From contig JAVMKL010000101.1 in the NCBI GenBank assembly GCA_031732875.1, positions 1-32,342 on the forward strand: a stretch of DNA of 32,342 nt, given 5' to 3'. The stretch is from Candidatus Competibacter sp. GTDB taxonomy: Bacteria; Pseudomonadota; Gammaproteobacteria; Competibacterales; Competibacteraceae. Positions within the stretch are counted from its first letter, which is position 1, and every line of letters starts with the position of its first letter. The translations under genes and the position numbers were made by a program. This document shows, in pieces, positions 12,836 through 31,320 of this stretch. The notes under the pieces are model-generated. The model saw only the letters and a list, made by a program, of their open reading frames with translations, was not told where the DNA came from and searched no databases.

Positions 12836-12892
12836 CTGGATTAAAGCGGCGACGGCGGCACCGCCAGCAGGGTGAGGGCGGTAGTGCTTCAA

Positions 12893-12975
12893 ATGTGGAT
12901 GCTGAATTATAAGATATTGTATTAATAAAATTATTTATAAATTTGAATCCATATTCACATCAGGAACACTACCGA
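12893..12975 (+). promoter_or_regulatory. Sharply AT-rich promoter/regulatory island upstream of the CBS-domain gene
   Basis: ~80 nt of 'aatgtggatgctgaattataagatattgtattaataaaattatttataaatttgaatccatattcacat' in an otherwise ~65% GC context. GAGG SD lies 7 nt before ATG 12990. Confidence 0.3.
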
Positions 12976-12989
12976 TAACGAGGCGAATC

Positions 12990-13475
12990 ATGCAACCAGG
13001 GCAGCATCCCCGTGTCGCGCACCCGACGCTGAAGCAAGTACTCGCGCAAAAGCCACGCGACCTGCATGTGGTCGACATCGACGCAACGGTGCTGGATGCC
13101 TTGCGAGTGATGGCCGAACGGGATGTCGGGGCCGTTCTGATACTGGACGGCAAACGCCCGGTCGGCCTGTTTACCGAACGTGACTTTGCCCGCCATACCG
13201 TTTCCGATGGCAGCCCGGTTCATCTGACACCGGTCCGCCAAGTGATGGCCGGGAATATCGTTTTTGCCACGCCCGAGCAGACGGTGTTGCAAGGCATGGC
13301 GCTGATGCGCGAACGGTGGCTTCGCTACCTCACGGTGCTCGAAAACGGCCATCCGCTGGGGATGCTATCGATCGGTGATCTACTCGAGGAAATCATCGCC
13401 TACCAGGAACGCGTCCTGAATGCCATCGAGTTAGACCAGCTCGTGCTGTTTGCCCGTGGAACGTACAGTTGCTGA
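12990..13475 (+). CDS. CBS-domain pair protein
   Basis: Two CBS-like repeats (VLDALRVMAERDVGAVLIL...GLFTERDF / VLQGMALMRERWLRYLTVL...GMLSIGDLL). Confidence 0.75.
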   Translation: MQPGQHPRVAHPTLKQVLAQKPRDLHVVDIDATVLDALRVMAERDVGAVLILDGKRPVGLFTERDFARHTVSDGSPVHLTPVRQVMAGNIVFATPEQTVLQGMALMRERWLRYLTVLENGHPLGMLSIGDLLEEIIAYQERVLNAIELDQLVLFARGTYSC

Positions 13476-13487
13476 TCGCGCCTTCCC

Positions 13488-14396
13488 TCATTCCTCGCCG
13501 TGGAGGAACAGCCGGCGATGCGCGTCGGCCAGCGAGCGCAGGTAATCCCAGACCACCCGCACCCGCTTGAGTCGCAGCCGGTCTGCATGAGCGGCCAGCC
13601 AGAACGTATGCTGGAAAGAGGCTTCATCCGGCAGCACCTTGATCAGACGTGGATCGCTGGCTCCGATGTAAGGCGCCAGTACCGCCAGCCCAACCCCAGT
13701 CAAGGCCGCTTCCTTGTGCGCCAGCATGCTGGTGCTGCAGAAGCGCAAATTCGGTTTATCGCAGAGTTTTTCGAGAAACCGTAATTCCTGGCTGAGCAAA
13801 TAGTCGTCGATATAGGCGATGAAGGGATGATCCGCCAGATCGGCACGGGACCGAATCGGCGGATGCGCCGCCAGATAATCCCTGGCCCCATACAGAAAAT
13901 AAGTGAAGTCGCTCCAGCGGGTCACTACATAAGGTCCCCGGCGCGGCGGTTCCAGGGTAATCGCTAAATCCGCCTCGCGGCTGGCCAGATTTGCCAGCCG
14001 GGGCAGAGCCAGCAATTCCAGGGTCAAGCGGGGATGTTCGTCGAGCAGTGGTTTGATCCGCGGCGTCAAAAAAATTACCGCCAGTCCTTCGGGAATGCCC
14101 AGCCGCACTTCGCCGCTGATCGCTACATCCCGATCCGCCAGTTCCTCCGATACCACAGCCACCGTGGATTCGACCATCTCCGCCATGGGCAATAGCGCTT
14201 GGCCAGCCTCGGTCAGGATGAGCCCATCGGGGCGACGGTCGAACAGCCGGGTACCCATCGCCCGTTCGAGCGCATCGATCCGGCGAGCCACCGTGCTATG
14301 TTCGACTCCCAATCGTCGAGCGGCGGGACTTAATCGTCCCAACCGCGCTACTGCCAAAAAATAGCGCAGGTCGTTCCAATCCATTTCGCGTTTCAT
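13488..14396 (-). CDS. LysR-family transcriptional regulator
   Basis: MDWNDLRYFLAVARLGRLSPAARRLGVEHSTVARRIDALE is a LysR wHTH, followed by a substrate-binding domain. Start taken at ATG 14396 (MKREMDW), which has a GAGAGG SD. The track start at 14414 lacks an SD. Confidence 0.85.
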   Translation of the reverse strand: MKREMDWNDLRYFLAVARLGRLSPAARRLGVEHSTVARRIDALERAMGTRLFDRRPDGLILTEAGQALLPMAEMVESTVAVVSEELADRDVAISGEVRLGIPEGLAVIFLTPRIKPLLDEHPRLTLELLALPRLANLASREADLAITLEPPRRGPYVVTRWSDFTYFLYGARDYLAAHPPIRSRADLADHPFIAYIDDYLLSQELRFLEKLCDKPNLRFCSTSMLAHKEAALTGVGLAVLAPYIGASDPRLIKVLPDEASFQHTFWLAAHADRLRLKRVRVVWDYLRSLADAHRRLFLHGEE

Positions 14397-14663
14397 CGCA
14401 TTCCTCTCCGCCATTCTTGCGTAACCGGCCCAACCAGATTTGAGGCTTGTTGTTTATTTATGCACTGAGTTTTCAATATTTTTGGGAATTTTCACCCATC
14501 CTGAGAGCGATTACAGTTAATTTGTCAGGTTTCATCCGTCGTTCGCGATTTGCCAATCCTGCCGCAACTAGAATTTATTTCGGATAGCGGGAGCGATCGG
14601 CCGTCATGGATCGGTTGCAACCGGACACTTCTCACAACGACATCCACCAAGAGGTTAAGCACG
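14397..14663. promoter_or_regulatory. Divergent promoter region between the LysR regulator and the permease / CoA-transferase operon
   Basis: 267-bp AT-rich intergenic region (ttatttatgcactgagttttcaatatttttgggaattttcac...) between divergently oriented genes. This is the expected location of LysR T-N11-A boxes, but no site was defined confidently. Confidence 0.35.
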
Positions 14664-16058
14664 ATGAGTTTCCTGATCGTCATTGGAGCGTTGATCCTGT
14701 TGATGTACGTGGCCTACAAGGGCCATAGCGTGGTGCTGTTCGCGCCTGTCGCCGCCCTGCTGGCGGTGCTGCTGACCGATCCGATTTTGGTTGCGCCGAT
14801 GTATCTCGGCGTGTTCATGGACAAGATGGTCAGCTTCATCAAGCTGTACTTCCCGGTATTCATGCTGGGAGCGGTGTTCGGCAAGGTGGTCGAGTTGTCC
14901 GGCTACTCGAAATCCATCGTGTCGGCGGTGGTCGACGCCATCGGCCACGAGCGGGCAATGCTGTCCATCGTTGTGGTGTGCGCGATCCTTACCTACGGCG
15001 GGGTTTCCCTGTTCGTGGTGGTGTTCGCGGTCTATCCGTTCGCAGCGGAACTGTTCCGGCAGACCCACATCCCGAAACGGCTGATTCCCGGCACGATTGC
15101 ATTAGGGGCGTTCACCTTCACCATGGATTCGCTGCCCGGCACTCCACAGATTCAAAATATCATTCCGACCTCCTTCTTCAACACCACCACCTGGGCCGCC
15201 CCCTGGCTGGGCGTAGTCGGCGGCGTGTTTATCTTCATTGTCGGGATGCTCTATCTCAACTGGCAACGCCGCCGCGCCGAAGTGGCCGGCGAAAGCTACG
15301 GGACCAACCTGATCAACGAGCCGGAACCGTTCACCCACGAAAAGCTGCCCAATCCCATCCTCGCCATCACCCCCCTGCTCCTGGTGGGCATCCTCAATTT
15401 CGCTTTCACCCAACTGGTGCCGATTCTGTACGGCCAAAAATTCGAGCTGACCATGACTGGGATCGGGGCCAAGCCGGTGCCGTTTGAAATCCCCAAGGTT
15501 GCAGCGATCTGGGCGGTGCAAGCGGCGCTGCTGGTGGGCATTCTGTTCGTGGTCATCACCGCCTGGAGGCCGATCAAGGAGAAATTCGCCGAAGGCGCCA
15601 AGTCGGCGGTAGCCGGGTCGCTGCTGGCATCGATGAACACCGCCTCGGAATACGGCTTCGGTGGCGTCATCGCCTCGCTGCCAGGATTCCTGGTGGTGGC
15701 CGATGCGCTACGGGCGATTCCCAACCCGCTGGTCAACGAAGCGATCACCGTCACCACCCTGGCCGGTATCACCGGCTCGGCATCGGGCGGCATGAGCATC
15801 GCCCTCGCTACCATGTCCAACCATTTCATCGAAGTCGCCAAAGCCGCTGACATCCCGCTGGAAGTGCTGCACCGCGTCGCCTCGATGGCCAGCGGTGGCA
15901 TGGACACGCTGCCGCACAACGGCGCGGTCATCACTTTGCTGGCAGTGACCGGTCTGACCCACAAACAGTCCTACAAGGACATCTTCGCGATTACCGTGAT
16001 CAAGACCAGCGCGGTATTCGTGGTGATCGCCTTCTTCTATCTGACCGGCATCTACTGA
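14664..16058 (+). CDS. GntP-family permease (gluconate / short-chain hydroxy-acid:H+ symporter family)
   Basis: 464-aa polytopic membrane protein with GntP-like N-terminal (MSFLIVIGALILLMYVAYKG) and C-terminal (TLPHNGAVITLLAVTGL) blocks. GAGG SD present. Confidence 0.75.
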   Translation: MSFLIVIGALILLMYVAYKGHSVVLFAPVAALLAVLLTDPILVAPMYLGVFMDKMVSFIKLYFPVFMLGAVFGKVVELSGYSKSIVSAVVDAIGHERAMLSIVVVCAILTYGGVSLFVVVFAVYPFAAELFRQTHIPKRLIPGTIALGAFTFTMDSLPGTPQIQNIIPTSFFNTTTWAAPWLGVVGGVFIFIVGMLYLNWQRRRAEVAGESYGTNLINEPEPFTHEKLPNPILAITPLLLVGILNFAFTQLVPILYGQKFELTMTGIGAKPVPFEIPKVAAIWAVQAALLVGILFVVITAWRPIKEKFAEGAKSAVAGSLLASMNTASEYGFGGVIASLPGFLVVADALRAIPNPLVNEAITVTTLAGITGSASGGMSIALATMSNHFIEVAKAADIPLEVLHRVASMASGGMDTLPHNGAVITLLAVTGLTHKQSYKDIFAITVIKTSAVFVVIAFFYLTGIY

Positions 16059-16126
16059 CCTGATCCGTGACGGGGCACGATCCACTTCATCGCGCCCCGT
16101 TCACTACCCAAAGGAGGAACAACGCC

Positions 16127-18139
16127 ATGCAACATCCTCTGCTTGCCTCGCTGCGCATCCCCGAACGCGGCAAGGTCGTCAGTGCCCGCGAGGCCGTCAG
16201 CCTGATCCGTCCCGGCGACGCCGTCGCCACCAGCGGCTTCGTCGGCACCGGTTTCGCCGAAGACATCGCTCGCGCGCTGGAGGAACTCTATCTTGCCCCC
16301 GAGGGCGATCCGAACGCGCCCGGCTTGGAAAAACCGCGTGATTTGACCCTGGTCTACGCCGCCGGCCAAGGCGACGGCAAAGAGCGCGGGCTCAATCATT
16401 TGGGCCACGCGGGACTGGTCAAACGAGTTATTGGCGGCCACTGGGGCCTGGTGCCGAAGCTGCAAGCGCTGGCGGTGGCCGACCAAATCGAAGCTTACAA
16501 CCTGCCGCAGGGCGTGATCACCCATCTGTATCGCGACATCGCTGCCGGCAAGCCGGGCACCCTGACCAAGGTCGGGCTGGGCACGTTCGTCGATCCGCGT
16601 TACGGCGGCGGCAAGCTCAACGCCATCACCCAGGACGATTTGGTCGAACTGATGGTGATCGGCGGTCACGAATATCTGCTTTACAAGGCGTTCCCGATCA
16701 ATGTCGGCATCATCCGGGCCACCACCGCCGACATCGACGGCAACCTGACCATGGAAAAGGAGGCCCTGACCCTGGAGTCGCTGGCGATCGCCACCGCGGT
16801 CCGCAATTCGGGTGGCATCGTCATCGCCCAGGTGGAGCGGGTGGCCGAGCGCGGTTTCATGCGACCCAAGGACGTGCGGGTACCGGGAATCCTGGTGGAT
16901 TGCATCGTGGTCGCGCCGCCGGAACACCATTGGCAGACTTTCGCCACCCCGTACAACCCGGCCTTTTCCGGTGAAATCAAGATACCGCTGGCCTCGATTC
17001 CGCCGATCCCGATGAGCGAGCGCAAGATCATCGCTCGCCGGGCGGCGCTGGAACTGACGCCCAACGCCATCGTGAATCTGGGCATCGGCATGCCGGAGAG
17101 CGTGGCGAACGTCGCCGCCGAGGAAAAGATCATCGATCTGCTCACCCTGACCGCCGAACCGGGGGTGGTGGGCGGCATTCCAGCCGGCGGGCTGGACTTC
17201 GGCGCGTCCACCAACGTGCAGGCCATCATCGACCAGCCGAACCAGTTCGATTTCTACGACGGTGGCGGCCTGGACATCGCGGTGCTGGGCATGGCCGAGG
17301 TGGATCGGTACGGCAATCTCAACGTCTCGAAATTCGGGCCCAGGATCGCCGGCGCCGGCGGATTCATCAATATCAGTCAGAATTCCCGGAAAGTGGTATT
17401 CGCCGGGACCTTCACCGCCGGCGGTCTGGACATCGCGGTGGAACAGGGCCAACTGTGCATCCGGCGCGAAGGGAAAACCGCCAAGTTCGTCGAGACGGTC
17501 GAGCAACGAACCTTCAGCGGCGAGGTCGCCAGTCGTCACAAGCAGCCGGTGCTTTATGTCACCGAGCGGGCGGTGTTCAGGCTGACGGTGGAGGGACCGG
17601 AATTGATCGAGATCGCCCCGGGCATCGATCTGGAACGCGACGTACTGGCCCACATGAAGTTCCAGCCCCGCGTCAGCGCCCAACTGCGGCGGATGGATGC
17701 CCGCATCTTTGGCGAGGAACCCATGGGGCTGCGCGATATCCTGCTGGCGCAACCGCTGGAGCAACGGCTGTCCTACGATCCGGTCAAGAATCTGTTTTTC
17801 CTGAACTTCGAATGGTTGACGGTGCGCAGTCGCGAGGATATCGAAAACATCCGGGCAGCGGTCAGCGGCAAGCTGGAACCGCTGGGCAAGAAAGTGTTCG
17901 CCATCGTCAATTACGACAATTTTTCGATCAGCCCGGAACTGTTGCGGGAATACATGGACATGGTGAGCGAAGTGGTGCAGCGTTATTACATCGGCGTGAC
18001 CCGCTATACCACCAGCGCGTTCCTGCGGGCCCGGCTGGGCGACGCCCTCCGGGAACGCGACCTGGCGCCCCAGATTTACGAAACCGCCGCCGAAGCAGCG
18101 TCGCGGCTCAATCCCTCGCAAGACCTTAACAACCCCTGA
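16127..18139 (+). CDS. Family I CoA-transferase (fused alpha/beta, acetate/propionate CoA-transferase-like)
   Basis: 670 aa, with N- and C-terminal 3-oxoacid CoA-transferase-like halves ([10 protein letters not shown]...GGHWGLVP...; [12 protein letters not shown]...GGLDFGAS...[10 protein letters not shown]). AAGGAGG SD lies 9 nt upstream of ATG 16127. Confidence 0.8.
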
Positions 18140-18217
18140 AACTCCGCAACGGGCCGACGTCTCGACTCAGGATGCCGGCCCATGAAACTTCCCGTACTCC
18201 GATAGAGGATACGCAAC

Positions 18218-18409
18218 ATGAACACCACCACCCCGAATCTCGATGCCGCCCTGGCCGAACTCGACCGCGCGCGCGAACTGTTGATCTTATTGCTGAAACT
18301 GGACAACGCGACCGAGTTGAGCGAGGAAGACACCGTGCTTCACACCCTGAGCGACCATATCAACGCCGCTTATGCTCTGTTGGCGGAAACGACCGGCCGA
18401 CCCGAATAA
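18218..18409 (+). CDS. Small hypothetical protein (63 aa, predicted helical)
   Basis: AGAGGA SD lies 8 nt upstream of the ATG. GC3-rich codon usage is consistent with coding. No family recognised. Confidence 0.4.
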   Translation: MNTTTPNLDAALAELDRARELLILLLKLDNATELSEEDTVLHTLSDHINAAYALLAETTGRPE

Positions 18410-18533
18410 AGCCGGTATCCACGCTGCGCCATTCTCCCCGCTCCGCGGCCCGTCGGCCTGGGGGGGCGGCTCTCTGGATCGGCGTGGGTTCTCCAGTTGA
18501 AGGGTCGAGGCCGGCGCAGCGCGCGGGCCGGCA

Positions 18534-20360
18534 TTACAACGGCAGCAGCAACGGCACCACCAGCAGGGTGATGGCCATTACCACCAGGATCAGCGGCAGC
18601 CCCACCCGCACGAAGTCGTTGAACCGGTAGCCGCCCGGGGCCAGCACCAGGGTGTTGACCGGCGAGGACACCGGGGTGGCGAAGGCCGCCGAGGCCGCCA
18701 CCGCCACGGTCATGGCGAAGGGGTAGGGCGAGACGCCGATCTTCTGGGCGGCGGCGATGGCGACCGGCGCCATCAGCACCGCCGTGGCGGTGTTGGAAAT
18801 GAACATGCCGACCAGCGCTGCCAGCAGGAAAATCCCGGCCAGCAGCGCCAGGGGGCCGAATCCGCCGAGTGCGGCCGCCAGCCCGTCGGCGATCAGGGTC
18901 ACGCCGCCGGTTTGTTCCAGCGCCCTGGCCAGCGGCAACATGCCGGCGATCACCACCAGGCTGGGCCAATTGATCGACCGGTAGGCATCCTCCAGCCGCA
19001 GGCAGCGGAACAGGCCCATGGCCAGCGCCGCCAGCAGCGCCGCCGCAGTGTTGGGGACCAGGCCGAAGGTCATCGCGACCACCATCGCCAGCAGGACCAG
19101 CAGCGCGAACGGCGCCCGCCGGTAGGCCGGGGCCACCTCACCGAATTCCGCCGGCAGGCCCAGCACCAGGAAATGCCGGCGGTCGCCCTGGAGCCGGCCG
19201 ATCTGTTTCCAGGAACCGGCGACCAGCAGCACGTCGCCGAAGGCCAGCTTTTCCTCGATCAGGTTGCCCGGCAGCGAGCGACCGCGGCGGCGGATGCCCA
19301 GTACGCTCAGGCCGTGGCGGCTGCGGAACGCCGCCTGGCGCAGGGTCTGGCCGACCAGTTCCGAATCCGGCGGCAGCAGCACCTCGACCATGCCCAGTTC
19401 CTTGACCAGATTGCGCTGCCGGCCTTCCTCGATCGGCAACGGGGTCAGCCGTTCGGCCGCGCCGAGGGTCTCCACCGCCTGGGTCGAACCGACCAGGTAG
19501 ACGACATCGGCGGGGCGCAGATCGGTGGTGGCCAGCGCCGGAACCACCTTGTCGCCGAACGGCCGCTGGCGCTCGACCCCGGCGATGGTGACACCGTAAC
19601 GGCTGCGGAGCGCAGCTTCCGCCACGGTCCGGCCGGCCAGGGACGAATCCGGCTCGACCCGCAGCCGGTGCAACTGGCCAAGCAGGTCGTAGCTTTCGCC
19701 CAGTTCCCGCAACGTCTGCCGGCGGCCCGCGGTTCCCGTCGGCGGCGGACTGGCCGGCAGCAGTCGGGAACCGACGGCCCACATGTAGGCAATTCCCAAC
19801 CCCAGCGCCAGCAGACCGATGGGGGTGATGCTCAAAAAGCCGAAGGGTTGCAGGCCGGCGGTGCGCAGGGCGTCGTTCACCATCAGGTTGGGCGGGGTGG
19901 CGATCAGGGTCAACATCCCGCTGAGCAGGGCGGCAAAAGCCAGCGGCATCATCAGCCGGCCCGGACCGATGCCGAGCCGGTTGATGATGCCCAGCACCAC
20001 CGGGATGAAGATCGCCACCACCCCGGTGGAACTCATGAACGCGCCCAGCCCAGCCACCGCCAGCATCAGCAGCACCAGCAACCGGGTTTCGCTGGCGCCG
20101 GCCACCCGGGTCAGCCAGTTGCCGACCTGGTTGGCGACGCCGGTTCGCACCAGACCCTCGCCGACTACGAACAACGCGGCGATCAGGACCACGATGGAAT
20201 CGCCGAAGCCGGCCACCGCCTCAGCCACCGGCAGGATGCCGCCCAGGATCAGGGCCACGATCACCAGCAGGGCCACCACGTCCGGCCGCAGCCGGTCGGT
20301 GGCGAACAGCACGACGGCGGCGGCCAGCACGCCGAAAACGAATAGAGCATCGGGAGTCAT
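18534..20360 (-). CDS. SLC13/DASS-family permease with tandem cytoplasmic TrkA-C (RCK_C) domains
   Basis: N- and C-terminal transporter repeats flank two TrkA-C-like segments (RVEPDSSLAGRTVAEAALRSRYGVTIAGV / LLPPDSELVGQTLRQAAFRSRHGLSVLGI). Start MTPDALFVF at 20360 has a GAGGTGA SD. Confidence 0.85.
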   Translation of the reverse strand: MTPDALFVFGVLAAAVVLFATDRLRPDVVALLVIVALILGGILPVAEAVAGFGDSIVVLIAALFVVGEGLVRTGVANQVGNWLTRVAGASETRLLVLLMLAVAGLGAFMSSTGVVAIFIPVVLGIINRLGIGPGRLMMPLAFAALLSGMLTLIATPPNLMVNDALRTAGLQPFGFLSITPIGLLALGLGIAYMWAVGSRLLPASPPPTGTAGRRQTLRELGESYDLLGQLHRLRVEPDSSLAGRTVAEAALRSRYGVTIAGVERQRPFGDKVVPALATTDLRPADVVYLVGSTQAVETLGAAERLTPLPIEEGRQRNLVKELGMVEVLLPPDSELVGQTLRQAAFRSRHGLSVLGIRRRGRSLPGNLIEEKLAFGDVLLVAGSWKQIGRLQGDRRHFLVLGLPAEFGEVAPAYRRAPFALLVLLAMVVAMTFGLVPNTAAALLAALAMGLFRCLRLEDAYRSINWPSLVVIAGMLPLARALEQTGGVTLIADGLAAALGGFGPLALLAGIFLLAALVGMFISNTATAVLMAPVAIAAAQKIGVSPYPFAMTVAVAASAAFATPVSSPVNTLVLAPGGYRFNDFVRVGLPLILVVMAITLLVVPLLLPL

Positions 20361-20367
20361 GAACGCT

Positions 20368-22329
20368 TCACCTCGGCCAGCCATCGCTGGAGTGTCGCCA
20401 ATCTTCAGGGCCACCGGCAAAACCGCCGGCGAGTTGCCGGTTCAGGGCGAGCAGCCGCCGCAAAATTTCAGCGTCTGGCATGGCCGGCTGGTAGTCGTCC
20501 CAACCATACGCCGCCGCCACGGCCGCATCCAGTTGCCGATGGGCCTGATCCAGCCAGGCCGGACGGGCGTTGTAGAGATTGGTCAAGGTGCGCCGGTTCA
20601 GTTCGGCGGCGAATTCCGGTTTGGGAAGCAGTCGGTCGGGATAGCCGGGAACGATTTCGGGAACCCGCTCCACCCATTCCGGCGGATTGAGCCAGTTTTG
20701 CCGCAGCGCGTTCAAGCGGCGCGCGGCTTCGGCGATGGCGGGGAACTGAGGCCCCTCGCCCGCTTGCGGGAGAGGGGTTGGGGTGAGGGCGTTTCGATTC
20801 GGCTGCAAACCAGGGGGAAACGGAAACGTCTCGAAGCAGGTGGCGGCGTTGTAGGTCGGGTCATTTCCAACGCCGTGCCGGCTGGCGTTGGCCAGCGCCC
20901 AGACTTCGTGAATGCGGGAATGCAGAATGCCGCAGGTCGCGTCGTCGTCGCGGGCGATCACGTACAGGCGGCTGTCGGGCAGCACGGCCGAATACAGCCA
21001 GACAAACAGCCGGTGCTTGGCGACGCGGGGCGTGGCGATGTAGCGCGGGACCCGAGCCAGCGCCTTCCGCATACCCGGCATGACCTCGCCATGCCGCCAC
21101 CAATATCTGGCGCGCAACGCCCGCCGGTTCCGTTCCCGTTCCGGCTTCACATGGGCCAGCACATAGGCGAACGGCGCTTCGTACAGCGCTGCCTCGGCCT
21201 CGGACAGTTCGCCGCCGAAGTCGATGATCCAGGTATCGGACGGGCGGCGGGTGATATCCATGCCGTTGGCCCAGGGGCGCAGGACATCACCGTTCGGCCT
21301 GCCGTGAGGGTTGGGTTGTTGAAGCCACTGGCGGGCCAGTTCGCCGGGAATGTCGAAAGCGCCGACTTTGACCGGCCCCTGAAAGCAGGTAGCTATGTTT
21401 TCGCGGAGCCTCACGGCCCTGGTTAAATCGGTTTCACCGGCGGTCAGGTCGGCGTTGACGGTGGCGACGGGGTGGCCGTCGAGTGAAATTCCCCCGGCTT
21501 CGCCACTCCCAAAACATACCAGCGACACCCGCACCGCCGCGCCGTCGTTGATCCAGGGTTCGTCCGACCAGGCGTTGAAGATGCGCGCCTTCACCTCCAG
21601 CCCCTGCGGAGGGAGGGGGGTATTGAGGATGCGTTCCAGCACGGTTCGATTGGCGCCCTTGCGGATGGCCTGCGTCGCCACCAGCCCGGCCCGTTGCGCC
21701 TTCCCCGCCTCAAGCTGCGCCCGCGCCTTCTCGAACCAGTAGCACACCAAATCCGCCCCGCCCGGCACCCGCCCGTCGTAATGGGCGACTTGGCGCGGAT
21801 CGTGGCCCCGCCGCTCCAGCGATCCGGCCAAGTCGGCGAACCGCCCCGCCGCCGCCAGGGTGATGTCGCGGTCGGTGCGGCGGGGGCGGAACTGCGCGGG
21901 GTGATCGAACACCGCGCGCAGCTTGGCGAGGTTCTCCGGCCGGCCGATCTCCTCCAGCCGGATGACGTGGGCTTCCGAGGGCGTGCCGGTGAAATGGGTG
22001 TGAATCTCGATGGTCCGCCGGTCGCAAACCACCAGCAGCGGCGGGTTGTCCAGGGCCAGGGCGTAGGTCATCAACTGCTTGAGCGCCTCGCCCAGATGGC
22101 CGCCCGGGGCCTTGTTCTCCCAGGCGAAACAGCCGCGCTTCCACACATCCGCCCAGCCACGCCCGGCCCCGGTGCGCGCCGCCCCGCGCTCGAAACAATA
22201 GTTCTCCGGGTCGCCGGGCTTGGCGACCCCCAGAATCTCGCAGAGATCGAGAAAGAACGGCTGAGCGCCGGCCCGCTCGCTCAGCGGATTGTCGCGCCAC
22301 AGGGCGATGAATTCAGCGGGAGTTCGCAA
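20368..22329 (-). CDS. MmeI-family (type IIL restriction-modification) homologue that retains the N-terminal PD-(D/E)xK nuclease domain and the C-terminal TRD/C-domain but lacks the methyltransferase catalytic core
   Basis: N-terminus aligns with MmeI (AQPFFLDLCEILGV ~ AKPFLIDFFEVFGI; GWADVWKRGCFAWENK...LLVVCDRRTIEIHT ~ GFVDLFWPGILLIEMK...YVLVCDFQRFRLT, with the D...ExK motif). The C-terminus also aligns (ARIFNAWSDEPW ~ AHRTFSWTNEAS; LTNLYNARPAWLDQAHRQLDAAVAAAYGW ~ LAGLYDPKTMPSELLKAHQKLDKAVDSVYGF). No FxGxG or NPPF/Y motifs are present, and the protein is ~270 aa shorter than MmeI. The only possible start is TTG 22329. Confidence 0.7.
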   Translation of the reverse strand: MRTPAEFIALWRDNPLSERAGAQPFFLDLCEILGVAKPGDPENYCFERGAARTGAGRGWADVWKRGCFAWENKAPGGHLGEALKQLMTYALALDNPPLLVVCDRRTIEIHTHFTGTPSEAHVIRLEEIGRPENLAKLRAVFDHPAQFRPRRTDRDITLAAAGRFADLAGSLERRGHDPRQVAHYDGRVPGGADLVCYWFEKARAQLEAGKAQRAGLVATQAIRKGANRTVLERILNTPLPPQGLEVKARIFNAWSDEPWINDGAAVRVSLVCFGSGEAGGISLDGHPVATVNADLTAGETDLTRAVRLRENIATCFQGPVKVGAFDIPGELARQWLQQPNPHGRPNGDVLRPWANGMDITRRPSDTWIIDFGGELSEAEAALYEAPFAYVLAHVKPERERNRRALRARYWWRHGEVMPGMRKALARVPRYIATPRVAKHRLFVWLYSAVLPDSRLYVIARDDDATCGILHSRIHEVWALANASRHGVGNDPTYNAATCFETFPFPPGLQPNRNALTPTPLPQAGEGPQFPAIAEAARRLNALRQNWLNPPEWVERVPEIVPGYPDRLLPKPEFAAELNRRTLTNLYNARPAWLDQAHRQLDAAVAAAYGWDDYQPAMPDAEILRRLLALNRQLAGGFAGGPEDWRHSSDGWPR

Positions 22330-22483
22330 GGCGGTTCACTGATCGGGTCGGGGATGGCGGCCATCGATGGCGATCATATCAAAACTGAGATTTCCGACGC
22401 GGCGAAGGTGGCTACAGGATGCGTTGGAGAAGACGGGGCCGGTCGTGCCGGTGGCGGAGCGGAAGAGGCCGGAGGAACCCGCT

Positions 22484-22825
22484 ATGCTTTCCAGCATGTC
22501 CGAGTTGAATGTGCCAGCGCCGCCGGTGTCTGATGCTTATGAAATCGCCAAGGCGGGCGGCAAGCATTCTAATTGGTACAAACAGCAGCTTGGTTTGCCT
22601 TCTTCGATATTGGAGCGCGCCATCAAGTCGTTCCAGTTGCTCGTTGGGAGGCATGAATCATGGATTCAAAATCCAACAGCAGAATATCCCGATTTCCATC
22701 AGTGGGATCCGCGGCGGCAACGAAATTTGATCGAACATCATTGGCCAGCGGACATAGCGCGTCATCGGGATTTCATTCGCATCCTCGAAGGAATTTTAAA
22801 GGAGCGCGGTTATGGCAACCAGTGA
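22484..22825 (+). CDS. Hypothetical protein (113 aa); first gene of an overlapping two-gene module; locally low GC
   Basis: GGAGGA SD lies 7 nt upstream of ATG 22484. The region is visibly AT-richer than its flanks. No family recognised. Confidence 0.45.
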   Translation: MLSSMSELNVPAPPVSDAYEIAKAGGKHSNWYKQQLGLPSSILERAIKSFQLLVGRHESWIQNPTAEYPDFHQWDPRRQRNLIEHHWPADIARHRDFIRILEGILKERGYGNQ

Positions 22826-23033
22826 TCGTTACGCGACTATTTTGATATCAGTATTGGAACTGGCCAAGCAAATCGGACAGGAACAGGCCGATGCCGATGC
22901 GGCGGAAGCGTGTTATCGGCTTTTGGAAGAGGCCGCCGCCCAAGCTGAAGTATGGGAAGTCCCGTTAGCCGAAATCGGTTTGGCCGGCTTCGATCCGGCT
23001 TCGCTGTTGAGCGCACCCCGCAAAGCCGCCTGA
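22812..23033 (+). CDS. Hypothetical protein (73 aa, acidic/helical); overlaps the upstream gene by 14 nt
   Basis: ATGGCAACCAGTGA overlap joins the two ORFs, which suggests translational coupling typical of toxin-antitoxin-like pairs. Confidence 0.4.
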   Translation: MATSDRYATILISVLELAKQIGQEQADADAAEACYRLLEEAAAQAEVWEVPLAEIGLAGFDPASLLSAPRKAA

Positions 23034-23049
23034 CCCGTCGCATCAATCT

Positions 23050-23077
23050 CTCCCGCATCGTCGATGACGAGCGGGAG
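23050..23077. terminator. 28-nt near-perfect nested palindrome (ctcccgc-a-tcgtc-gat-gacga-gcgggag) between convergent genes; possible bidirectional terminator or binding site
   Basis: The palindrome is read directly from the sequence. No U-tract follows, so it is not a canonical intrinsic terminator. Confidence 0.35.
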
Positions 23078-23111
23078 CGACGCCTTCATTCATTCCAGGC
23101 ACGTGATCGGC

Positions 23112-23951
23112 TCATGGTGGCGGAGGATTTACCCGCTCCTCCGCCCCCGCTTCGAGCCACCCCAGCACCTCGTCCCACCAGGCGGCGCGCGGATCCACCG
23201 GCCAACTGTTGTGGCCCGCGCCCGCGAAGACCCAGCGCCGCTTCGGTTCCCGCAGCGCGTCGTACAGGCGCTGGCTGTGGCGCGCCGGGATGATCTCGTC
23301 CCGTTCGGCCACCAGCACTGCGATCCTGCCGCCATACTGGTTCAGAGAGGCGATGTTGTCGTAGCGGTCGCGCAGCAGCCAGCGGGCCGGCAGATACCAG
23401 TACAGGGTTTGCGCCAGATCGGACAGACGATCCCACGGCGTGATCAGCACCACCCCGGCCACCGGCAGCGCGGAGTCGGTCGCCACGCCCGCCGCCACCG
23501 CCGCTCCCAGCGACTCGCCCCAGACCAGCAGGGGACCGCCGAACGCCGCCAGCGCCCGCCGGGCAGTCTCCCGACCATCGCTGATGAAGGAGTCTTCGCC
23601 CAGCTCACCACCCCGCCCGCCATAACCCGGATATTCCGCGAGCACCACGCGATAACCGCGGGCTTCCAGGGCCAGCCAATAATAAAACCGGTCGCGGGCG
23701 CCGCCAGCGTTGCCGTGAAACACGACCACCGTTCCCCGAACTGGCGAACCCTCACGCAGGCCCGCGCCGGCGTAGCCCCGAAATTCCGCGCCACCGGCCG
23801 GCCAGGGTTCGAGGGTCATCCCGCTCGCCAGACGCACGGTGGCGATAGCGGGCGGCGCGGGATCGGGAAAGTACAGCATGCGCCGCTGGACCACAAAGAC
23901 GAATCCGACCAGCAACAGGTAGCCGATCACGAGATACAGCAGGATCCGCAT
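23112..23951 (-). CDS. Alpha/beta-hydrolase fold protein with an N-terminal membrane anchor
   Basis: GESLG nucleophile elbow (GxSxG), and a His near the C-terminus (GAGHNSW). N-terminal helix MRILLYLVIGYLLLVGFVFVV. GGAGA SD lies 6 nt upstream of ATG 23951. Confidence 0.75.
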   Translation of the reverse strand: MRILLYLVIGYLLLVGFVFVVQRRMLYFPDPAPPAIATVRLASGMTLEPWPAGGAEFRGYAGAGLREGSPVRGTVVVFHGNAGGARDRFYYWLALEARGYRVVLAEYPGYGGRGGELGEDSFISDGRETARRALAAFGGPLLVWGESLGAAVAAGVATDSALPVAGVVLITPWDRLSDLAQTLYWYLPARWLLRDRYDNIASLNQYGGRIAVLVAERDEIIPARHSQRLYDALREPKRRWVFAGAGHNSWPVDPRAAWWDEVLGWLEAGAEERVNPPPP

Positions 23952-25561: not shown

Positions 25562-25588
25562 AAAAAAGCCCGGCCTTGCGGCCGGGCT
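25562..25588 (-). terminator. Rho-independent terminator (copy 1) belonging to the duplicated SPFH 3' segment
   Basis: On the minus strand: agcccggcc-gcaa-ggccgggct followed by tttttt. Confidence 0.7.
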
Positions 25589-25603
25589 CCGGTTTGACGG
25601 CGC

Positions 25604-25823
25604 TCAATGCGCCGGCAGGTCAATGCGCACCGTGTCGCGCAACACGCTATCCAGGCCGCCGAACACGGTCAGCCGTTCGACCTTATCCACGACCTTCTCC
25701 AGCGCTTCCAGTTCCTTGAGCCGCAGCAGCAGGGGGTTCTCTTCCATGAGCTTCGCCGTGTTGAGCAGCGAGCGGGTGGCGGCGATTTCCTCGCGGCGGC
25801 GAATGATGTTGGCCTGCGCCACC
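25604..25823 (-). pseudogene. Orphan 3' fragment of an SPFH/band-7 gene (encodes ...VAQANIIRRREEIAATRSLLNTAKLMEENPLLLRLKELEALEKVVDKVERLTVFGGLDSVLRDTVRIDLPAH*)
   Basis: Matches the last 73 aa of the intact gene at 29722..30870 with a few substitutions. The N-terminal codons of the track ORF come from the insertion. Confidence 0.8.
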
Positions 25824-25852
25824 CTCGCGGAAAAAATCCACAAATATGGAAT

Positions 25853-28762
25853 TCAGTCTTTTTCAGTATGGCTGATGACTTTTTCAACTTGAATATCATT
25901 TATTCCAAAATCGTCCTGAATTTTAGTCTGTTTCTGTTTTCTACAAACTCTGCGAGAGAATATGAAACCCTTGGGGCACAATTCTATCTGTGGCAATATT
26001 CGTTCTTTGTTAGGATTTTCACAAAATTCATCGATATCTTTCTCCTGTGAAATGAGAAATTTAAGAAAATTAACTCCCTTATATTTGCAGGTTATATAGA
26101 GACTTAAAAGGATAAGATAAGAATTTAGGCCAGATTCTGAAATCTGATAATCAACAACCTCTCGATAATAAGCAAATTCCTTAATGGCGTGTTCCGCATT
26201 GTTATTATTCCATGGTACGCCATCATGATTAATAAACGTAAATAGTTTATCCTGATACTTCACCAATCTTTTACGGTAGTCTTCAGTCACTTCAGAACGG
26301 TAAATCTTCCCCGAGATATTTTTGAAGAATTGATTAACATCCCGTTTATGCTTTCCAAGGTATTTTTTCTGGAGTCCATAATTGTCAATAGTGTCGATGA
26401 TATTGCGTAGTAATTTACCAAAATCGGATGCGAGTTTTTTAAGTTCTTCATCCCATGAATTAGCCTGTATATCATTATTAAAGTCCCTGATAAGGTGGAT
26501 TAAACACTTTTGCTGTTCACATGGAAGAGCGTCATAAGGCGCGTAAAAATCAGAAATTAATACACCTCGAAAATCTTTTAGCATATTATTTAGAAAGCTT
26601 CCCTCTCGTGATTTCCTGTAGATATATAAGACTTCTTCCATATTTGTGAAGACCCACACATACTCTTTGCCATCACGCGTGAGATGAACCTCCGTCTCGT
26701 CCACATGGATAAAAGTACCACCTATCATCTTGGCCAGAATTTGCTTGGAAGTTTCCTCATAATATTGGGATAGTAACTGCTTAAATGTGAATACATCAAC
26801 TGTGGATACAGGTAACCCAAAATAGTCATTAAACCTCTTTGCGATTTTTGAAAAACTAGATCGACATGCCACATATTCATACATGGCCCAGCTTTTCAGG
26901 GAATGGAAATACTCGTCCGAACGAAGATATTCTTCGGGTAAGAACCGCTTGCCACATGTCAAACAGCAATGCCGAGTAGTCGTAAACCGTATTACCCATC
27001 TGCTGATACCACTTTGCGTGATTTGAAGGTTTCGAGCTAAGCGAACTAACCGCCTATCCATCTGCCGAGTTATCTCTGTCCCTCTACAGCTAGGGCATTT
27101 TTGGCTACTGATTTCAATGGTATTATTTGCCAAAATATCTTTTTTGCCCTGCCTACTGTGTCTTTTAGATCTCTTTTTCTTTAGAGCCTCGTTTGTTCGA
27201 ATAAAGATTTTATCTCTTTGATAATCGAAGTATGCGCATTTGTTGATAATCCTGAAATCAGGGATAGTGAACTCTGTCCGGCCCCAGTCTGGACGGCTAG
27301 AATCTGGACTCATCTCTCCTACTTGCGATACAGGGTAACCTTCGTGGGTTATGGTCTTGGGTTGCGTCGCCGAAGTTTGCTTCGGGCAGATGGCATAAAG
27401 GAACTCTGTTACCTTCTTCAATGCAGCACAGTCTTCCAAATTGTATGTTGCGAGCATTTCTTTGAGTGCCTGCGAACCAGTTTGCTCCCACTTATTTCGC
27501 CACACAATGCTCTGTATGCCTGAAGCATCGGCTTCAGTCCAGTTAAAACCCAGATAGCCACCGATATGCTTCAAGCCATTGGAATATGTAGGGAAATAGA
27601 TATGCGAATAAATGATTGAGAGAATGTTGACAACACGAGCAAGGATCTTGTCGCCAACCTCCTGTTGGCCCAAATCTTTTATCATTCGTCGCAAGAATAT
27701 TGCCTCATAACTACCATAAGCGTAGAGGTAAAAGTCGTCGAGACGATTCACTACATCGAGAAATTTCTGGAACAGATGGAATTCCTCAGTTTGGCTGTCT
27801 ACCCAAAATGAGTGATGCTCTTCCGCTCCATTCCTCACGATAATCATACCAAGCAGGTATATATATCTGCGTTCCGGGTCACCTTCGAGATCTAAATAGA
27901 TTTGTGTTGATGGATGTGGCAGTTCGGGTGTACCAAGCACGTAGATCTTCTTATTTCGAATAGCCAACGCCTGTAAAGCATGATTGTGTGGTTGACTTTT
28001 TTGCTTTGATCGCGTATTTCTTTTTTGTGGGCGGAAGATACAGGATAGTTGAGTGACAGTGAGGATTCCTCTCTTATTGTATTTTCGGATTTCCTTTTGA
28101 CTCAATCCTTGTAGCAAACTGAGGTCATCCTTTGCTGTCGCATTAACATGGCACCGTTGGCAGAACTCGCAAATTTGGCAGTGTCGGTTAAGCATTAATA
28201 CTGGAGCTACACCACTCTCTTGGATTTCCTTAATTTCTTGTAGTGCTCGTCGTGCGCTTTTATCGCCAGAATCCAGCTTGAATTTTGTGGTATTGCATTC
28301 GCGGCCATGGATCAAAATCCCAACCTGTGGTTGCCTTCCTTGGGTATCGCCGAGGATGCAGCCATGCATTGCAAGCAAGATTTTATGTTGTCTGTTGAGT
28401 TTTTCTGCCTCGTGGAATAATACGGGAATGTAGTGAAATTCTCCTAGTCGTGATGGGCCAACTTCTTTCTGGAGAGAATCAAAGTGGACTGCAATCCTCT
28501 GATCTTCTAGAATCACGTCTGAGAGTAATGATATCCCCCGTTTTAGTGTCGCAAGTGTTAGGGTGACACCATGTGCGGTATCGACTTCTTGGTATCGAGT
28601 TACAAGTTTATGCGTGGCCGCTTGTCGTACATGGTTTCTGGTCTCTTTCTGCAATAATTCATAGGGTGATACGTTACCTTGTTCACGAATCAGCTTCAGG
28701 TATCCTTTGTATTTGCAGTTCAAGTAGCTCTCTAGAATTTCCCCGGTGATCTTCGTGTCCAT
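25853..28762 (-). CDS. 969-aa fusion protein: N-terminal TM0106-family RecB/Cas4-like nuclease plus RNase-H-like (YprB-type 3'-5' exonuclease) domains, fused to a C-terminal IS66-family transposase (zinc ribbon + DDE domain)
   Basis: N-terminus ITGEILESYLNCKYKGYL plus HCQICEFCQRC Cys cluster (Cas4-like). IYLDLEGDPERRYIYLLGMII ... YGSYEAIFL ... NLEDCAAL form an RNase_H_2 / DEDD-like exonuclease triad. CPSCRG...CLTCGKRF is the IS66 zinc finger. FIHVDETEV ... YVWVF ... RGVLISDFYAPYD ... CLIHLIRDF ... NNNAEHAIKEF is an IS66 DDE transposase core. GGAGGTAAGCT SD precedes ATG 28762. Confidence 0.8.
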   Translation of the reverse strand: MDTKITGEILESYLNCKYKGYLKLIREQGNVSPYELLQKETRNHVRQAATHKLVTRYQEVDTAHGVTLTLATLKRGISLLSDVILEDQRIAVHFDSLQKEVGPSRLGEFHYIPVLFHEAEKLNRQHKILLAMHGCILGDTQGRQPQVGILIHGRECNTTKFKLDSGDKSARRALQEIKEIQESGVAPVLMLNRHCQICEFCQRCHVNATAKDDLSLLQGLSQKEIRKYNKRGILTVTQLSCIFRPQKRNTRSKQKSQPHNHALQALAIRNKKIYVLGTPELPHPSTQIYLDLEGDPERRYIYLLGMIIVRNGAEEHHSFWVDSQTEEFHLFQKFLDVVNRLDDFYLYAYGSYEAIFLRRMIKDLGQQEVGDKILARVVNILSIIYSHIYFPTYSNGLKHIGGYLGFNWTEADASGIQSIVWRNKWEQTGSQALKEMLATYNLEDCAALKKVTEFLYAICPKQTSATQPKTITHEGYPVSQVGEMSPDSSRPDWGRTEFTIPDFRIINKCAYFDYQRDKIFIRTNEALKKKRSKRHSRQGKKDILANNTIEISSQKCPSCRGTEITRQMDRRLVRLARNLQITQSGISRWVIRFTTTRHCCLTCGKRFLPEEYLRSDEYFHSLKSWAMYEYVACRSSFSKIAKRFNDYFGLPVSTVDVFTFKQLLSQYYEETSKQILAKMIGGTFIHVDETEVHLTRDGKEYVWVFTNMEEVLYIYRKSREGSFLNNMLKDFRGVLISDFYAPYDALPCEQQKCLIHLIRDFNNDIQANSWDEELKKLASDFGKLLRNIIDTIDNYGLQKKYLGKHKRDVNQFFKNISGKIYRSEVTEDYRKRLVKYQDKLFTFINHDGVPWNNNNAEHAIKEFAYYREVVDYQISESGLNSYLILLSLYITCKYKGVNFLKFLISQEKDIDEFCENPNKERILPQIELCPKGFIFSRRVCRKQKQTKIQDDFGINDIQVEKVISHTEKD

Positions 28763-28939
28763 AGCTTACCTCCAAGGATGAAGTTTCCATTAGCAGATCC
28801 ACGCACATCAGATACTGCACCACTCGACCCCGGTCAGTCACGATGCGTTCCAGTTTCGCTGCCGACAGGCTAATAGGATTGGGCCGGAAGGTGGAACGAG
28901 TCGCGAATACGTCCAGCCGCCCGAGTCGATCCGGGCTGG

Positions 28940-29679
28940 CGTGGAACCCCGAATTATCGCGGAAGCAGCCTCAATGACTTACCGGCTAAAGCCGGTAGGT
29001 TGTTAGAGGCGTAAACGCCCGTTCAGACTCAAGTCAGTTCGGGTTGCGGATGAATCTGCCTGAAGCTCATTCCGCCAGCGCCGGTGACTCGTCCCAGACT
29101 TGGAAGGCACCCGATCCGTCCTCTTGCTCTTCGATATAGCGCTTAACTTGTTCTTCCGTCACTCTGCCCCCACCGTCACGCAGAAATACCCCCTCCCCCA
29201 CAGGTATTGGCTCCAATACCGCTTCTGCAACTCCCGAAATTCCCGCTGCAACCGATAGGAGGATTTACCCTTGAGGTATTGCAGCATCTTTGCCGGCGAC
29301 AGATACGTCGGCGCACTCACCAAGAGATGGACATGATTGGGGCGAATATTTCCCTGTATGACTACCATATCGTGTTCCGCAGCGATCATCCGCAGCAAAT
29401 CCCGGAGCCGGAGCCCGATCTCCCCGCGCAACACTGGATACCCGTACTTCGTCTTCCATACCATGTGGTACTTCAGGTCTGTAACCGTGTGGGCACCACG
29501 CCGATACCGCGCTCGATCTACCATCCGCTGTTCCCGCTCAAGCTGTAGCCCTTGACGAAGGGCGCGTGCTAAAGACGTTTCCGCCTAAAGGCGAAGGTTT
29601 ATATCCTATTGTTTGGAAATCAAACGATGCTGATCGGCGTCAAGCTAAATATTGGCGGAATTTCGGTGGACAGTGGTAC
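28940..29679 (-). mobile_element. IS200-like (IS200/IS605 family) element, ~0.74 kb, with TAAA-loop subterminal hairpins on both sides of tnpA
   Basis: tnpA is flanked by short hairpins cgcc-taaa-ggcg (29581-29592), gccctt-gacg-aagggc (29547-29562), ccggc-taaa-gccgg (28981-28994) and ggcg-taaa-cgcc (29007-29018). The size matches IS200. The left boundary is approximate. Confidence 0.5.
29068..29524 (-). pseudogene. tnpA: IS200/IS605-family Y1 (HuH) transposase tnpA, frameshifted near the 3' end
   Basis: TDLKYHMVWKTKYGYPVL ... HVHLLVSAP (HuH) ... YLKGKSSYRLQ ... RGYFCVTVGAE*. The conserved C-terminus VTEEQVKRYIEEQE continues in another frame immediately after the stop (gcaGAGtgacggaagaa), extending to TGA at 29068. 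Confidence 0.75.
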
Positions 29680-29706
29680 AAAAAAGCCCGGCCTTGCGGC
29701 CGGGCT
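29680..29706 (-). terminator. Rho-independent terminator of the intact SPFH gene (repeat copy 2)
   Basis: On the minus strand: agcccggcc-gcaa-ggccgggct followed by tttttt. The IS200-like LE begins immediately 3' of the T-run. Confidence 0.7.
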
Positions 29707-29941
29707 CCGGTTTGACGGCGCTCAATGCGCCGGCAGGTCAATGCGCACCGTATCGCGCAACACGCCATCCAGGCCACCGAACACGGTCAGCCGTTCGACC
29801 TTGTCGACCACCTTCTCCAGCGCCTCCAGTTCCTTGAGCCGCAGCAGCAGGGGGTTCTCCTCCATCAGCTTCGCCGTGTTGAGCAGCGAGCGGGTGGCGG
29901 CGGTTTCCTCGCGCCGGCGGATGACGTTGGCCTGCGCCACC
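29680..29941. repeat. Direct repeat copy 2 (262 bp) = native 3' end of the SPFH gene plus terminator
   Basis: See copy 1 (25562..25823). Confidence 0.8.
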
Positions 29942-30870
29942 TTCTCCGCCTGCACGACCTGGTTGAGAATGTCCTTCATCTCGCCCGGCAGGATCACGTC
30001 CTTCAAGCCGACCGTCTCCAGTTCCAGACCGTGCGGGCGAACCTTCTCGACCGCGTAGTCCCACACGGCCCGATCCAGTTCGTCCTTGTCGCCGAGCAGC
30101 ACGTCCAGGGTGCGGGTACCGATGGTCTGGCGCAGACCGAACTGCAAGGTCCGGTACAGGTAGTCGCCGCTGTTGCCCAGTTCGGCGCGAGCCTTCACCG
30201 GATCGGCGATCCGGTAGACCGCCGACAGGTTCACCCGCAGGCTGACCTTGTCCTTGGTCAGGATTTCCTGGCCGGAGACCTCCAGGGTCTGCAAGCGCAG
30301 GTCCACCGACTCTACCTTCACCGCCCGGTTGAACCGCCAGAAGGCGTGCAGGCCGGGCGACAGGGTACGGACCAGCTCGCCGTCCACCAGCAACAGACCG
30401 ATGTGGTTGTCCTCCACCTCGGCGACCTGAATGAAACCGGTCACATTCTTGACCAGGGTCGCCGACGGCCGCGCCAGCAGGGCCGCGTGCGCCCGCGACA
30501 GGGCGTAATCGGTGGCGATGTTGATCGACTCGACGCGAACCTCCACCGGACCCCGCCAGTAGACCCGACGGGTCGCGGGGGGCAACACGCCATCCAGACG
30601 ACCGTTCTTGTAGATCAGGCCAACCTGCCGGTCGCCGGTCTCGACGACCTGAAAATGGCGCTCGATCAGCTCCTGGTCGGTCTTCAACAGCACGTCCAGC
30701 CAGGGGTGCTCGAACTCGGCCACGGTTAGATCGTACCGCTGCACCTCGTGGCGGTTCAGAGGATCGAGCCAACGGTAAATACCCGGTTCCAGAATGGCCG
30801 CCAGCCGGCGGTCGTACAGGTGGAGCCCACGCTCGTTCTGGGCGATCACGATTCGCTTGTAACCCAACAT
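29722..30870 (-). CDS. SPFH/band-7 (stomatin/slipin-like) domain protein, apparently soluble (no N-terminal TM helix)
   Basis: The C-terminal half carries the SPFH core and coiled-coil (RTLQFGLRQTIGTRTLDVLLGDKDELD...ILPGEMKDILNQVVQAEKVAQANVIRRREE...). Start MLGYKRIVIA at 30870 has an AAGGAG SD. The upstream part of the 443-aa track ORF lacks a start signal. Confidence 0.75.
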   Translation of the reverse strand: MLGYKRIVIAQNERGLHLYDRRLAAILEPGIYRWLDPLNRHEVQRYDLTVAEFEHPWLDVLLKTDQELIERHFQVVETGDRQVGLIYKNGRLDGVLPPATRRVYWRGPVEVRVESINIATDYALSRAHAALLARPSATLVKNVTGFIQVAEVEDNHIGLLLVDGELVRTLSPGLHAFWRFNRAVKVESVDLRLQTLEVSGQEILTKDKVSLRVNLSAVYRIADPVKARAELGNSGDYLYRTLQFGLRQTIGTRTLDVLLGDKDELDRAVWDYAVEKVRPHGLELETVGLKDVILPGEMKDILNQVVQAEKVAQANVIRRREETAATRSLLNTAKLMEENPLLLRLKELEALEKVVDKVERLTVFGGLDGVLRDTVRIDLPAH

Positions 30871-31320
30871 CTTGGTTCTCCTTGTGAAGTTGTTTGCAGT
30901 CTTCCTGTTCCGCCGCAATGCGGCGGGCGAGCGTGGCGTGTTGCTAGTCGGCGCCGTTTCCGGCCCGCCACCGCCGAGCGTCAGGATGTCATCGAGACCT
31001 GCTCCTGCCGGTTGGTTGATGAAAGAGGTTAAAGGGTTGGGAGCACACCCCACGCCCGCGCGGCGGACGACGGGTCGCTGCCGGGTCGATGATCGGCGGG
31101 CCTCGTGCGGCGGCCAGCGTCCTTGCTGGCCAGCGTCGCGCTCGGCTGGCCGATCATGACTTCAGCCTGATTCCCCGTCGCGCGGGACCGCGCGGACGGT
31201 GCGGGTCGGCGACCGTCCGATGCCGAGGCACCGGGCAAGCCGCCGCCCGCCGGGGTGGCTCCCGGGGTACTACAGTCGATGAAGCGGATTCGAACCGCGA
31301 GCCGTTTTAAGGCTTTCCCA

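Follow-up and report, generated by a model that had tools for sequence, protein, structure and literature searches.

MmeI (type IIL, PDB 5HR4; Morgan 2008/2009, Callahan 2016) is divided into an endonuclease domain (residues 1-155), a spacer (156-300), a methyltransferase (301-620), a target recognition domain or TRD (621-825) and a C-terminal bundle (826-919), with methyltransferase motif I at residues 360-370 and motif IV at residues 481-484 (PMC4833311). The features that characterise the family are an N-terminal PD-(D/E)XK domain with a D-X9-E-X-K motif, the multi-helical spacer, a gamma-class N6-adenine methyltransferase carrying motifs X, I and IV, and a family-type TRD with a C-terminal helical domain. 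AdoMet is needed for cleavage by every tested MmeI-family enzyme (PMC2731913, PMC2582602), and cleavage in the family also depends on a pair of enzyme molecules, bound at two sites.

Members of the family that have lost part of their function are already on record. Three naturally disrupted MmeI-family genes were reactivated by Morgan et al. 2009 (PMC2731913); the lesions in those genes were small and could be repaired by simple mutation, whereas the gene described here has lost 972 nt. Homologues of the YeeA and MslORFHP type, which belong to the same superfamily, have been left with only one of the two activities (PMC2731913), but they retain the methyltransferase and lack the PD-ExK nuclease motif, the opposite of what is missing here. 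Internally deleted family members are also found in databases. One of them (P0229) reads VAH and 25 further residues before continuing into GRLPGGADLVCY, with a right endpoint two residues from that of the present gene; five others (P0125, P0179, P0225, P0205 and P0230) have the nuclease domain fused to a C-terminal tail, and P0260, P0331 and P0342 show other internal losses. Several of these are in-frame joins of the nuclease domain to downstream parts, yet none has the junction reported below.

The window, meaning the whole stretch of 32,342 nucleotides that was analysed, carries on its minus strand a 653-aa ORF that opens, as the preliminary description had noted, with a TTG codon. The parts of the locus are given below, with spacer boundaries taken from PMC4833311.

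20368..22329, minus strand: whole ORF, a putative restriction-modification gene of the MmeI family (type IIL/IIG) with an internal deletion (Pfam, PDB, PADLOC)
22327..22329, minus strand: TTG start codon
21865..22329, minus strand: N-terminal PD-(D/E)XK nuclease domain, aa 1-155 (Pfam MmeI_N, MmeI alignment)
22149-22147, 22119-22117 and 22113-22111, minus strand: catalytic residues D61, E71 and K73, intact
21781..21864, minus strand: linker and first helical-spacer residues, aa 156-183, ending ...QVAH183
21778..21783, minus strand: deletion junction CAT/TAC (H183/Y184)
21415..21780, minus strand: C-terminal remnant of the gamma-class N6-adenine methyltransferase, aa 184 to ~305, corresponding to MmeI ~503-620
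20800..21414, minus strand: TRD, aa ~306-510
20401..20799, minus strand: C-terminal helical domain, aa ~511-643
20368..20400, minus strand: read-through tail, with TGG at 20400-20398 and the new TGA at 20370-20368
18534..20360, minus strand: downstream CitMHS/TrkA_C (SLC13-type) permease, ATG at 20360
22329..22988, no strand: upstream segment without nucleotide homology to relatives L003 and L004, GC 0.55
22367-22825 and 22812-23033, plus strand: two-ORF cassette, mostly inside the segment 22329..22988

By sequence, the 653-aa ORF is a homologue of the MmeI family (type IIL/IIG). The Pfam mapping that the preliminary description had proposed as a check recovers MmeI_N at aa 6-173 with a significant E of 7.6e-11, a partial and weak match to MmeI_Mtase at aa 191-236 (only profile positions 172-217 of 259), and weak matches to MmeI_TRD (aa 444-505, E 6.6e-4) and MmeI_C (aa 578-634, E 2e-4); these last two lie below the Pfam cut-off, as they also do in the full-length relative P0003. 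The helical spacer model, MmeI_hel, has no Pfam match in the 653-aa protein, and NCBIfam returned no match for it. The sole match in a PDB sequence search is MmeI 5hr4, aligned over query residues 3-109 (MmeI 11-121) and 191-274 (MmeI 510-588); MmeI is likewise the top Foldseek match, and PADLOC assigns aa 187-635 to REase_MTase_IIG with 536 bits. Identity to full-length relatives is 62-92%. Within the nuclease domain, predicted by AF2 with a pLDDT of ~90, the D61-X9-E71-N-K73 array (WADVW...WENK) aligns with D70/E80/K82 of MmeI, and the triad is invariant across 50 homologues, in agreement with the earlier identification of a D...ExK motif in WENK. Kinship to the DrmMI methyltransferase of DISARM or to PglX of BREX was considered and rejected: the DrmMI match in PADLOC reaches 192 bits against 536 for type IIG, the NCBIfam BREX matches of P0003 fall far under the cut-off, and the neighbours in the window, in L003 and in L005 are housekeeping genes, without drm or brx genes.

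The comparison with MmeI separates what is retained from what is gone. The N-terminal PD-(D/E)XK domain with its D-X9-E-X-K motif is shared, and the region of methyltransferase motifs V-VIII, the family-type TRD and the C-terminal helical bundle are homologous, whereas MmeI residues ~187-509, comprising most of the spacer, His314/motif X, motif I and motif IV, have no counterpart. Of the methyltransferase, the last third is left. A regex scan for [DNS]PP[YFW], a DPACGSG-type motif I and a GAxYT motif X found none in the ORF and none elsewhere in the window; all three motifs are present in full-length P0003 and P0001, and their conservation across the family is 90% or more. Because motifs X, I and IV are missing, the protein should be unable to bind AdoMet, or to flip and methylate adenine, in the manner of MmeI. 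The ORF therefore belongs to the family by descent, yet lacks both spacer and methyltransferase core, two features that define the family, and the initial reading of an MmeI homologue without a methyltransferase core holds good.

The nature of the loss is seen best against close relatives. In a set of 5.8 billion proteins, the 120 top-ranking relatives are all 930-1060 aa long except two fragments from short contigs or contig ends, and the nuclease-TRD architecture occurs in none of the 120. Two apparent precedents dissolved on inspection: a ~660-aa match over both halves in Chromatium okenii (L029) proved to be two tandem full-length paralogues bridged by tblastn, and an unbroken match across the junction (P0301) is a contig-truncated fragment that keeps DPACGSG and NPPF, with a spurious match extension. 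Aligned with its relatives, the protein shows a single clean gap, passing from ...QVAH183 to Y184DGRVPGG..., and 972 nt (324 codons) are absent, in frame, at 21780/21781, relative to both L003 and L005. The preliminary description had put the protein at about 270 aa shorter than MmeI; it is indeed shortened, but by 324 codons against its own orthologues, and with the whole spacer gone as well.

The same preliminary text had suggested that orthologues in related strains be checked for length, and L003 and L004 do carry a full-length gene of 948 aa (P0003) at the same chromosomal position. The window flanks are 93-95% identical to these contigs by BLASTN; the nuclease domain aligns at 95.4%, positions 2567-3536 of L003 are skipped, and the alignment resumes at 93.5%. 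The order abhydrolase, small ORF, MmeI-like gene, CitMHS/TrkA_C permease is common to the window and L003/L004, and the pair of MmeI-like gene and permease is found throughout L001-L004. The full-length Competibacteraceae orthologues (P0003 in L003/L004, P0006 in L002 and P0004 in L001) thus match the window in position and downstream permease but keep the 972 nt that it lacks, as seen along its length in L003/L004 and from motif IV onward in L002. The TRD allele of the window is that of L001 and L002, with 73-81% nucleotide identity to the allele of L003/L004, and from the junction onward the window is ~95% nucleotide-identical to L001/L002. Since L002 has this same TRD allele at ~95% nucleotide identity with NPPF intact, a full-length version of the window's allele exists.

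Projected onto P0003, the deletion removes residues 184-507 (MmeI ~187-509), starting at Pfam MmeI_hel (180-249) and ending at residue 507, 21 residues past NPPF. This right endpoint lies inside Pfam MmeI_Mtase (355-588), and so not at a domain border. The junction reads CCCAT/TACGAC, and only TT, a microhomology of 2 nt, is common to both ancestral sites, which argues for illegitimate recombination or slippage rather than homologous recombination. On these comparisons the ORF is best described as a deletion allele and not as a distinct protein architecture. No protein carrying the VAH/YDGRVPGG junction was found in protein database searches, a degenerate DNA pattern for VAHYDGRVPGG gave 0 matches in JGI metagenome contigs, and an exact-protein look-up of the 653-aa ORF returned no record.

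Both ends of the gene have changed as well. Where L003 and L004 start with ATG CGA ACT, the window has TTG CGA ACT; nucleotide homology to them stops at the first base of this TTG codon, and the next 660 nt upstream (22329-22988) bear no relation to the 326 nt that L003/L004 have there. The two ORFs of this region had been described as a module following the gene and as lending the locus the flavour of a defence island. They actually lie upstream, in divergent orientation relative to the MmeI-like gene; neither has a Pfam, NCBIfam or PADLOC match, only 8 homologues were found, and the remaining neighbourhood is one of housekeeping genes (abhydrolase, spermidine-synthase-like gene, permease and CoA-transferase), so that nothing is left to recommend the defence-island view. 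A literature search found nothing specific on Competibacter restriction systems. At the other end, L001, L002 and L003 finish with ...GAT TGA, 38 nt before the permease start, whereas in the window the ancestral TGA has become TGG (GAT TGG) and the frame runs on for 10 codons up to a new TGA, which overlaps the permease Shine-Dalgarno sequence (GAGGTGA). It is solely through this stop loss that the ORF abuts the permease, as had been noticed, although the gap to the permease ATG is 7 nt rather than 8. The GAGG at 20374-20371 does lie inside the extended ORF, but the position of the Shine-Dalgarno sequence within the gene is a by-product of the change from TGA to TGG; in relatives the same sequence sits in the 38-nt intergenic spacer. 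Scanning 18300-23200 for promoters and terminators yielded no promoter-like sites, and terminator-like sites only at background level.

One question regarding such an allele is how long it has existed, and the retained codons bear on it. Columns at least 97%, at least 90% and at least 80% conserved among 118 full-length homologues were compared, and the window deviates at conserved columns no oftener than intact homologues do, with deviations in the C-terminal part at 0/98, 5/163 and 9/208 columns, respectively. Apparent N-terminal deviations at aa 151-181 were discarded as an alignment artefact beside the gap. Pairwise dN/dS against L001, L002 and L003 lies at 0.23-0.28, as it also does among the relatives themselves, and private codon changes number 10 non-synonymous to 22 synonymous in the window, 20:23 in L001 and 18:21 in L002. 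Against an assumed neutral proportion of ~75% non-synonymous, the 10:22 count has a binomial P of 2.4e-7, which suggests that purifying selection acted on the window lineage during the greater part of its separate history. None of the three measures (conserved-column deviations, pairwise dN/dS, private counts) gives a sign of decay or relaxed selection in the retained codons. The open frame, the intact nuclease triad, the usable TTG start and the absence of codon decay are features that speak against a dead remnant. A very young deletion and selection on the truncated protein fit the retained-codon data equally well; that the junction is found nowhere else, and that start and stop codons have also changed, favours the former, and the deletion is probably young relative to strain divergence.

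Taken together, the evidence makes it probable, with good though not complete confidence, that the ORF represents a loss-of-function allele, and that the gene concerned is a Competibacteraceae restriction-modification gene of the MmeI type, standing alone and inherited vertically. On this reading, one illegitimate-recombination or slippage event at 2 nt of microhomology took out 972 nt in frame and, with them, nearly the whole helical spacer and the methyltransferase region holding motif X, motif I (AdoMet binding) and motif IV (NPPF). The nuclease of the family presumably works only with AdoMet bound and the methyltransferase-TRD clamp intact, and would depend on the spacer for its placement ~20 bp from the site. 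The product would then neither methylate nor cut site-specifically, and would be harmless rather than lethal. The allele differs further in its 5' flank, where TTG replaces ATG, and in having lost the original stop. The suggestion of an inactivated remnant gains support here, in that the close relatives are all full-length and the window differs by one clean in-frame deletion.

What the 653-aa product does is judged from knowledge of the family, on which it should be inactive. Since the AdoMet site has been deleted, AdoMet-dependent cleavage ~20/18 nt from an asymmetric site, together with protective methylation of one strand, is expected to be lost. The preliminary description had argued that a nuclease with a TRD and without cognate methylation should be lethal if active, an argument weakened by the AdoMet requirement of tested family members and by a deletion that ends inside the methyltransferase fold. 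If cleavage is AdoMet-dependent, a remnant without the AdoMet core would be inactive rather than lethal, and most likely the product does nothing. Structure predictions run with the same 50-sequence alignment gave full-length P0003 a pLDDT of 86.3 and a pTM of 0.75, with segment 508-630 mostly at 86-97, and the window protein a pLDDT of 72.8 and a pTM of 0.39, with the methyltransferase remnant (aa 184-310) at 39-67. The disordered remnant in the AF2 model fits a fragment deprived of its fold context, although this is only suggestive.

Alternatively, the gene may really be full-length, and the 972-nt gap may have arisen from contig joining or a chimeric read. The junction has been seen in this window alone, among JGI metagenome contigs and protein databases, and its right endpoint falls ~24 nt upstream of GADLVCYWFEKARAQ, a block that is a frequent breakpoint of metagenome contigs; L001 begins precisely at the junction, and L074, L042, L057 and L070 start no more than ~30 nt from it. 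However, 2 nt is all that the two sides have in common, too little for a k-mer graph to bridge, and neither flanking conserved block of the deleted segment has left a trace. The join is in frame, within a 32-kb contig otherwise collinear with L001, L003 and L004, and the start- and stop-codon changes specific to this allele suit a real decaying gene. An assembly or sequence artefact is for these reasons unlikely.

It is also conceivable that the deletion created a repurposed nuclease-TRD fusion that is kept by selection, for instance as a nuclease independent of methylation, as a regulator that binds DNA or as the partner of another methyltransferase. The open frame, the intact D61/E71/K73, the complete TRD and C-terminal domains and the lack of excess in private non-synonymous changes relative to L001 and L002 are all compatible with such a role. 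The architecture, however, is in no second genome or metagenome searched, and the deletion cuts through the methyltransferase fold, leaving a ~120-aa fragment that AF2 predicts poorly. Moreover, the 5' region and ATG of the orthologues are gone, the scan of 18300-23200 found no promoter-like site, and family cleavage has the AdoMet and two-molecule requirements given above. The early proposal of a repurposed DNA-binding or defence protein is in consequence left without positive support, the junction having been found in no other protein, and repurposing in general appears quite improbable. The narrower version, in which a functional sequence-directed DNA binder or AdoMet-independent nuclease was selected and the pristine codons and triad reflect selection after the deletion, must be rated as very doubtful.

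A mixed population with a standing OFF allele, in which deleted and full-length alleles occur side by side and recombination with a relative could restore the full-length form, is barely credible: active and inactive MmeI-family alleles have been proposed to coexist in natural populations (Morgan et al., PMC2731913), and L001, a contig of another MAG, has as its start exactly the first base that both alleles share, but that coincidence is largely due to the nearby assembly-breaking conserved block, a 972-nt deletion is irreversible within a clone, and the idea is a population-level extension of loss of function and not another mechanism. The start of L001 could be taken as proof of allele coexistence, yet it is weak evidence, because four unrelated contigs also start within ~30 nt, just before GADLVCYWFEKARAQ.

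Under the preferred reading of a loss-of-function allele, the gene adds another decayed member to a known family, a case of ordinary gene decay. An annotation should label it a type IIL restriction-modification gene that is disrupted or a remnant, and should call it neither a methyltransferase nor an active nuclease. Were the truncated protein active after all, a nuclease that is guided by its TRD and works without methylation would interest enzyme engineers. For the family, the allele adds evidence that in-frame internal deletion is a recurrent route of decay, and it indicates how a restriction enzyme made of a single polypeptide could lose its activity in one step and yet not kill its host, since the cleavage activity relies on the very AdoMet-binding core that the same deletion removed.

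Within the MmeI-family gene, the region encoding the target recognition domain (TRD; window 20894-21564) is 73-81% identical to its counterparts in L003 and L004, the Competibacteraceae contigs with a full-length gene at the syntenic position, and its flanks are 93-95% identical; against L001 and L002, the other two syntenic contigs, the same region reaches ~95% identity. Two TRD alleles therefore circulate at this locus among closely related strains, presumably corresponding to two recognition specificities. Chromatium okenii DSM 169 carries two full-length MmeI-family genes in tandem (contig L029, 9-5666) that are near-identical except in the TRD, and three to five paralogues per genome are found in C. 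okenii LaCa, RA.bin98 and an erpe_2018 bin. MmeI-family paralogue families of this kind account for the breaks of metagenome contigs at the conserved block GADLVCYWFEKARAQ.

Upstream of the MmeI-family gene lies a pair of small genes.

22367-23033, plus strand: two overlapping ORFs, 152 aa and 73 aa

The two ORFs overlap by 14 nt, have a GC content of 0.55, and match nothing in Pfam, NCBIfam or PADLOC; the true start of the larger is probably at M40. An equivalent pair (160 aa and 73 aa), again with a 14-nt overlap, is carried by contigs L088 and L089, where the 73-aa product is 47% identical to that of the window, and in L088 the pair is adjoined by fragments of an IS1595 transposase. The search for homologues of the larger protein yielded only 8, and in L003 and L004 the pair is represented solely by a 110-aa ORF related to the 73-aa one. 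The two genes could together form a small, mobile, toxin-antitoxin-type cassette.

Two larger differences separate the window from individual syntenic contigs, L003 in the first case and L004 in the second.

16067-18139: CoA-transferase gene, within a ~5.6-kb extra segment
25562-29944: low-GC island with flanking direct duplication
25853-28762, minus strand: 969-aa fusion ORF, main cargo of the island
29159-29524: small ORF, also in the island
29722-31053, minus strand: SPFH/Band7 gene

The first, ~5.6 kb that the window has in excess of L003 in the interval from the permease to the glucokinase region (12876-18534), is a strain-level indel, of which at least the permease-proximal part is common to the window and L001. 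The second, an island at ~25827-29679 (GC 0.44 versus ~0.65) that is missing from L004, is inserted into the SPFH/Band7 gene at its 3' end, ~265 nt of which are directly duplicated, with one copy on each side of the island (25562-25826 and 29680-29944, ~95% identical). In the 969-aa ORF, an IS66-family DDE transposase is fused to both a TM0106-family RecB/Cas4-like nuclease and an RNase_H_2 domain; the island is an unusual single-gene mobile element.
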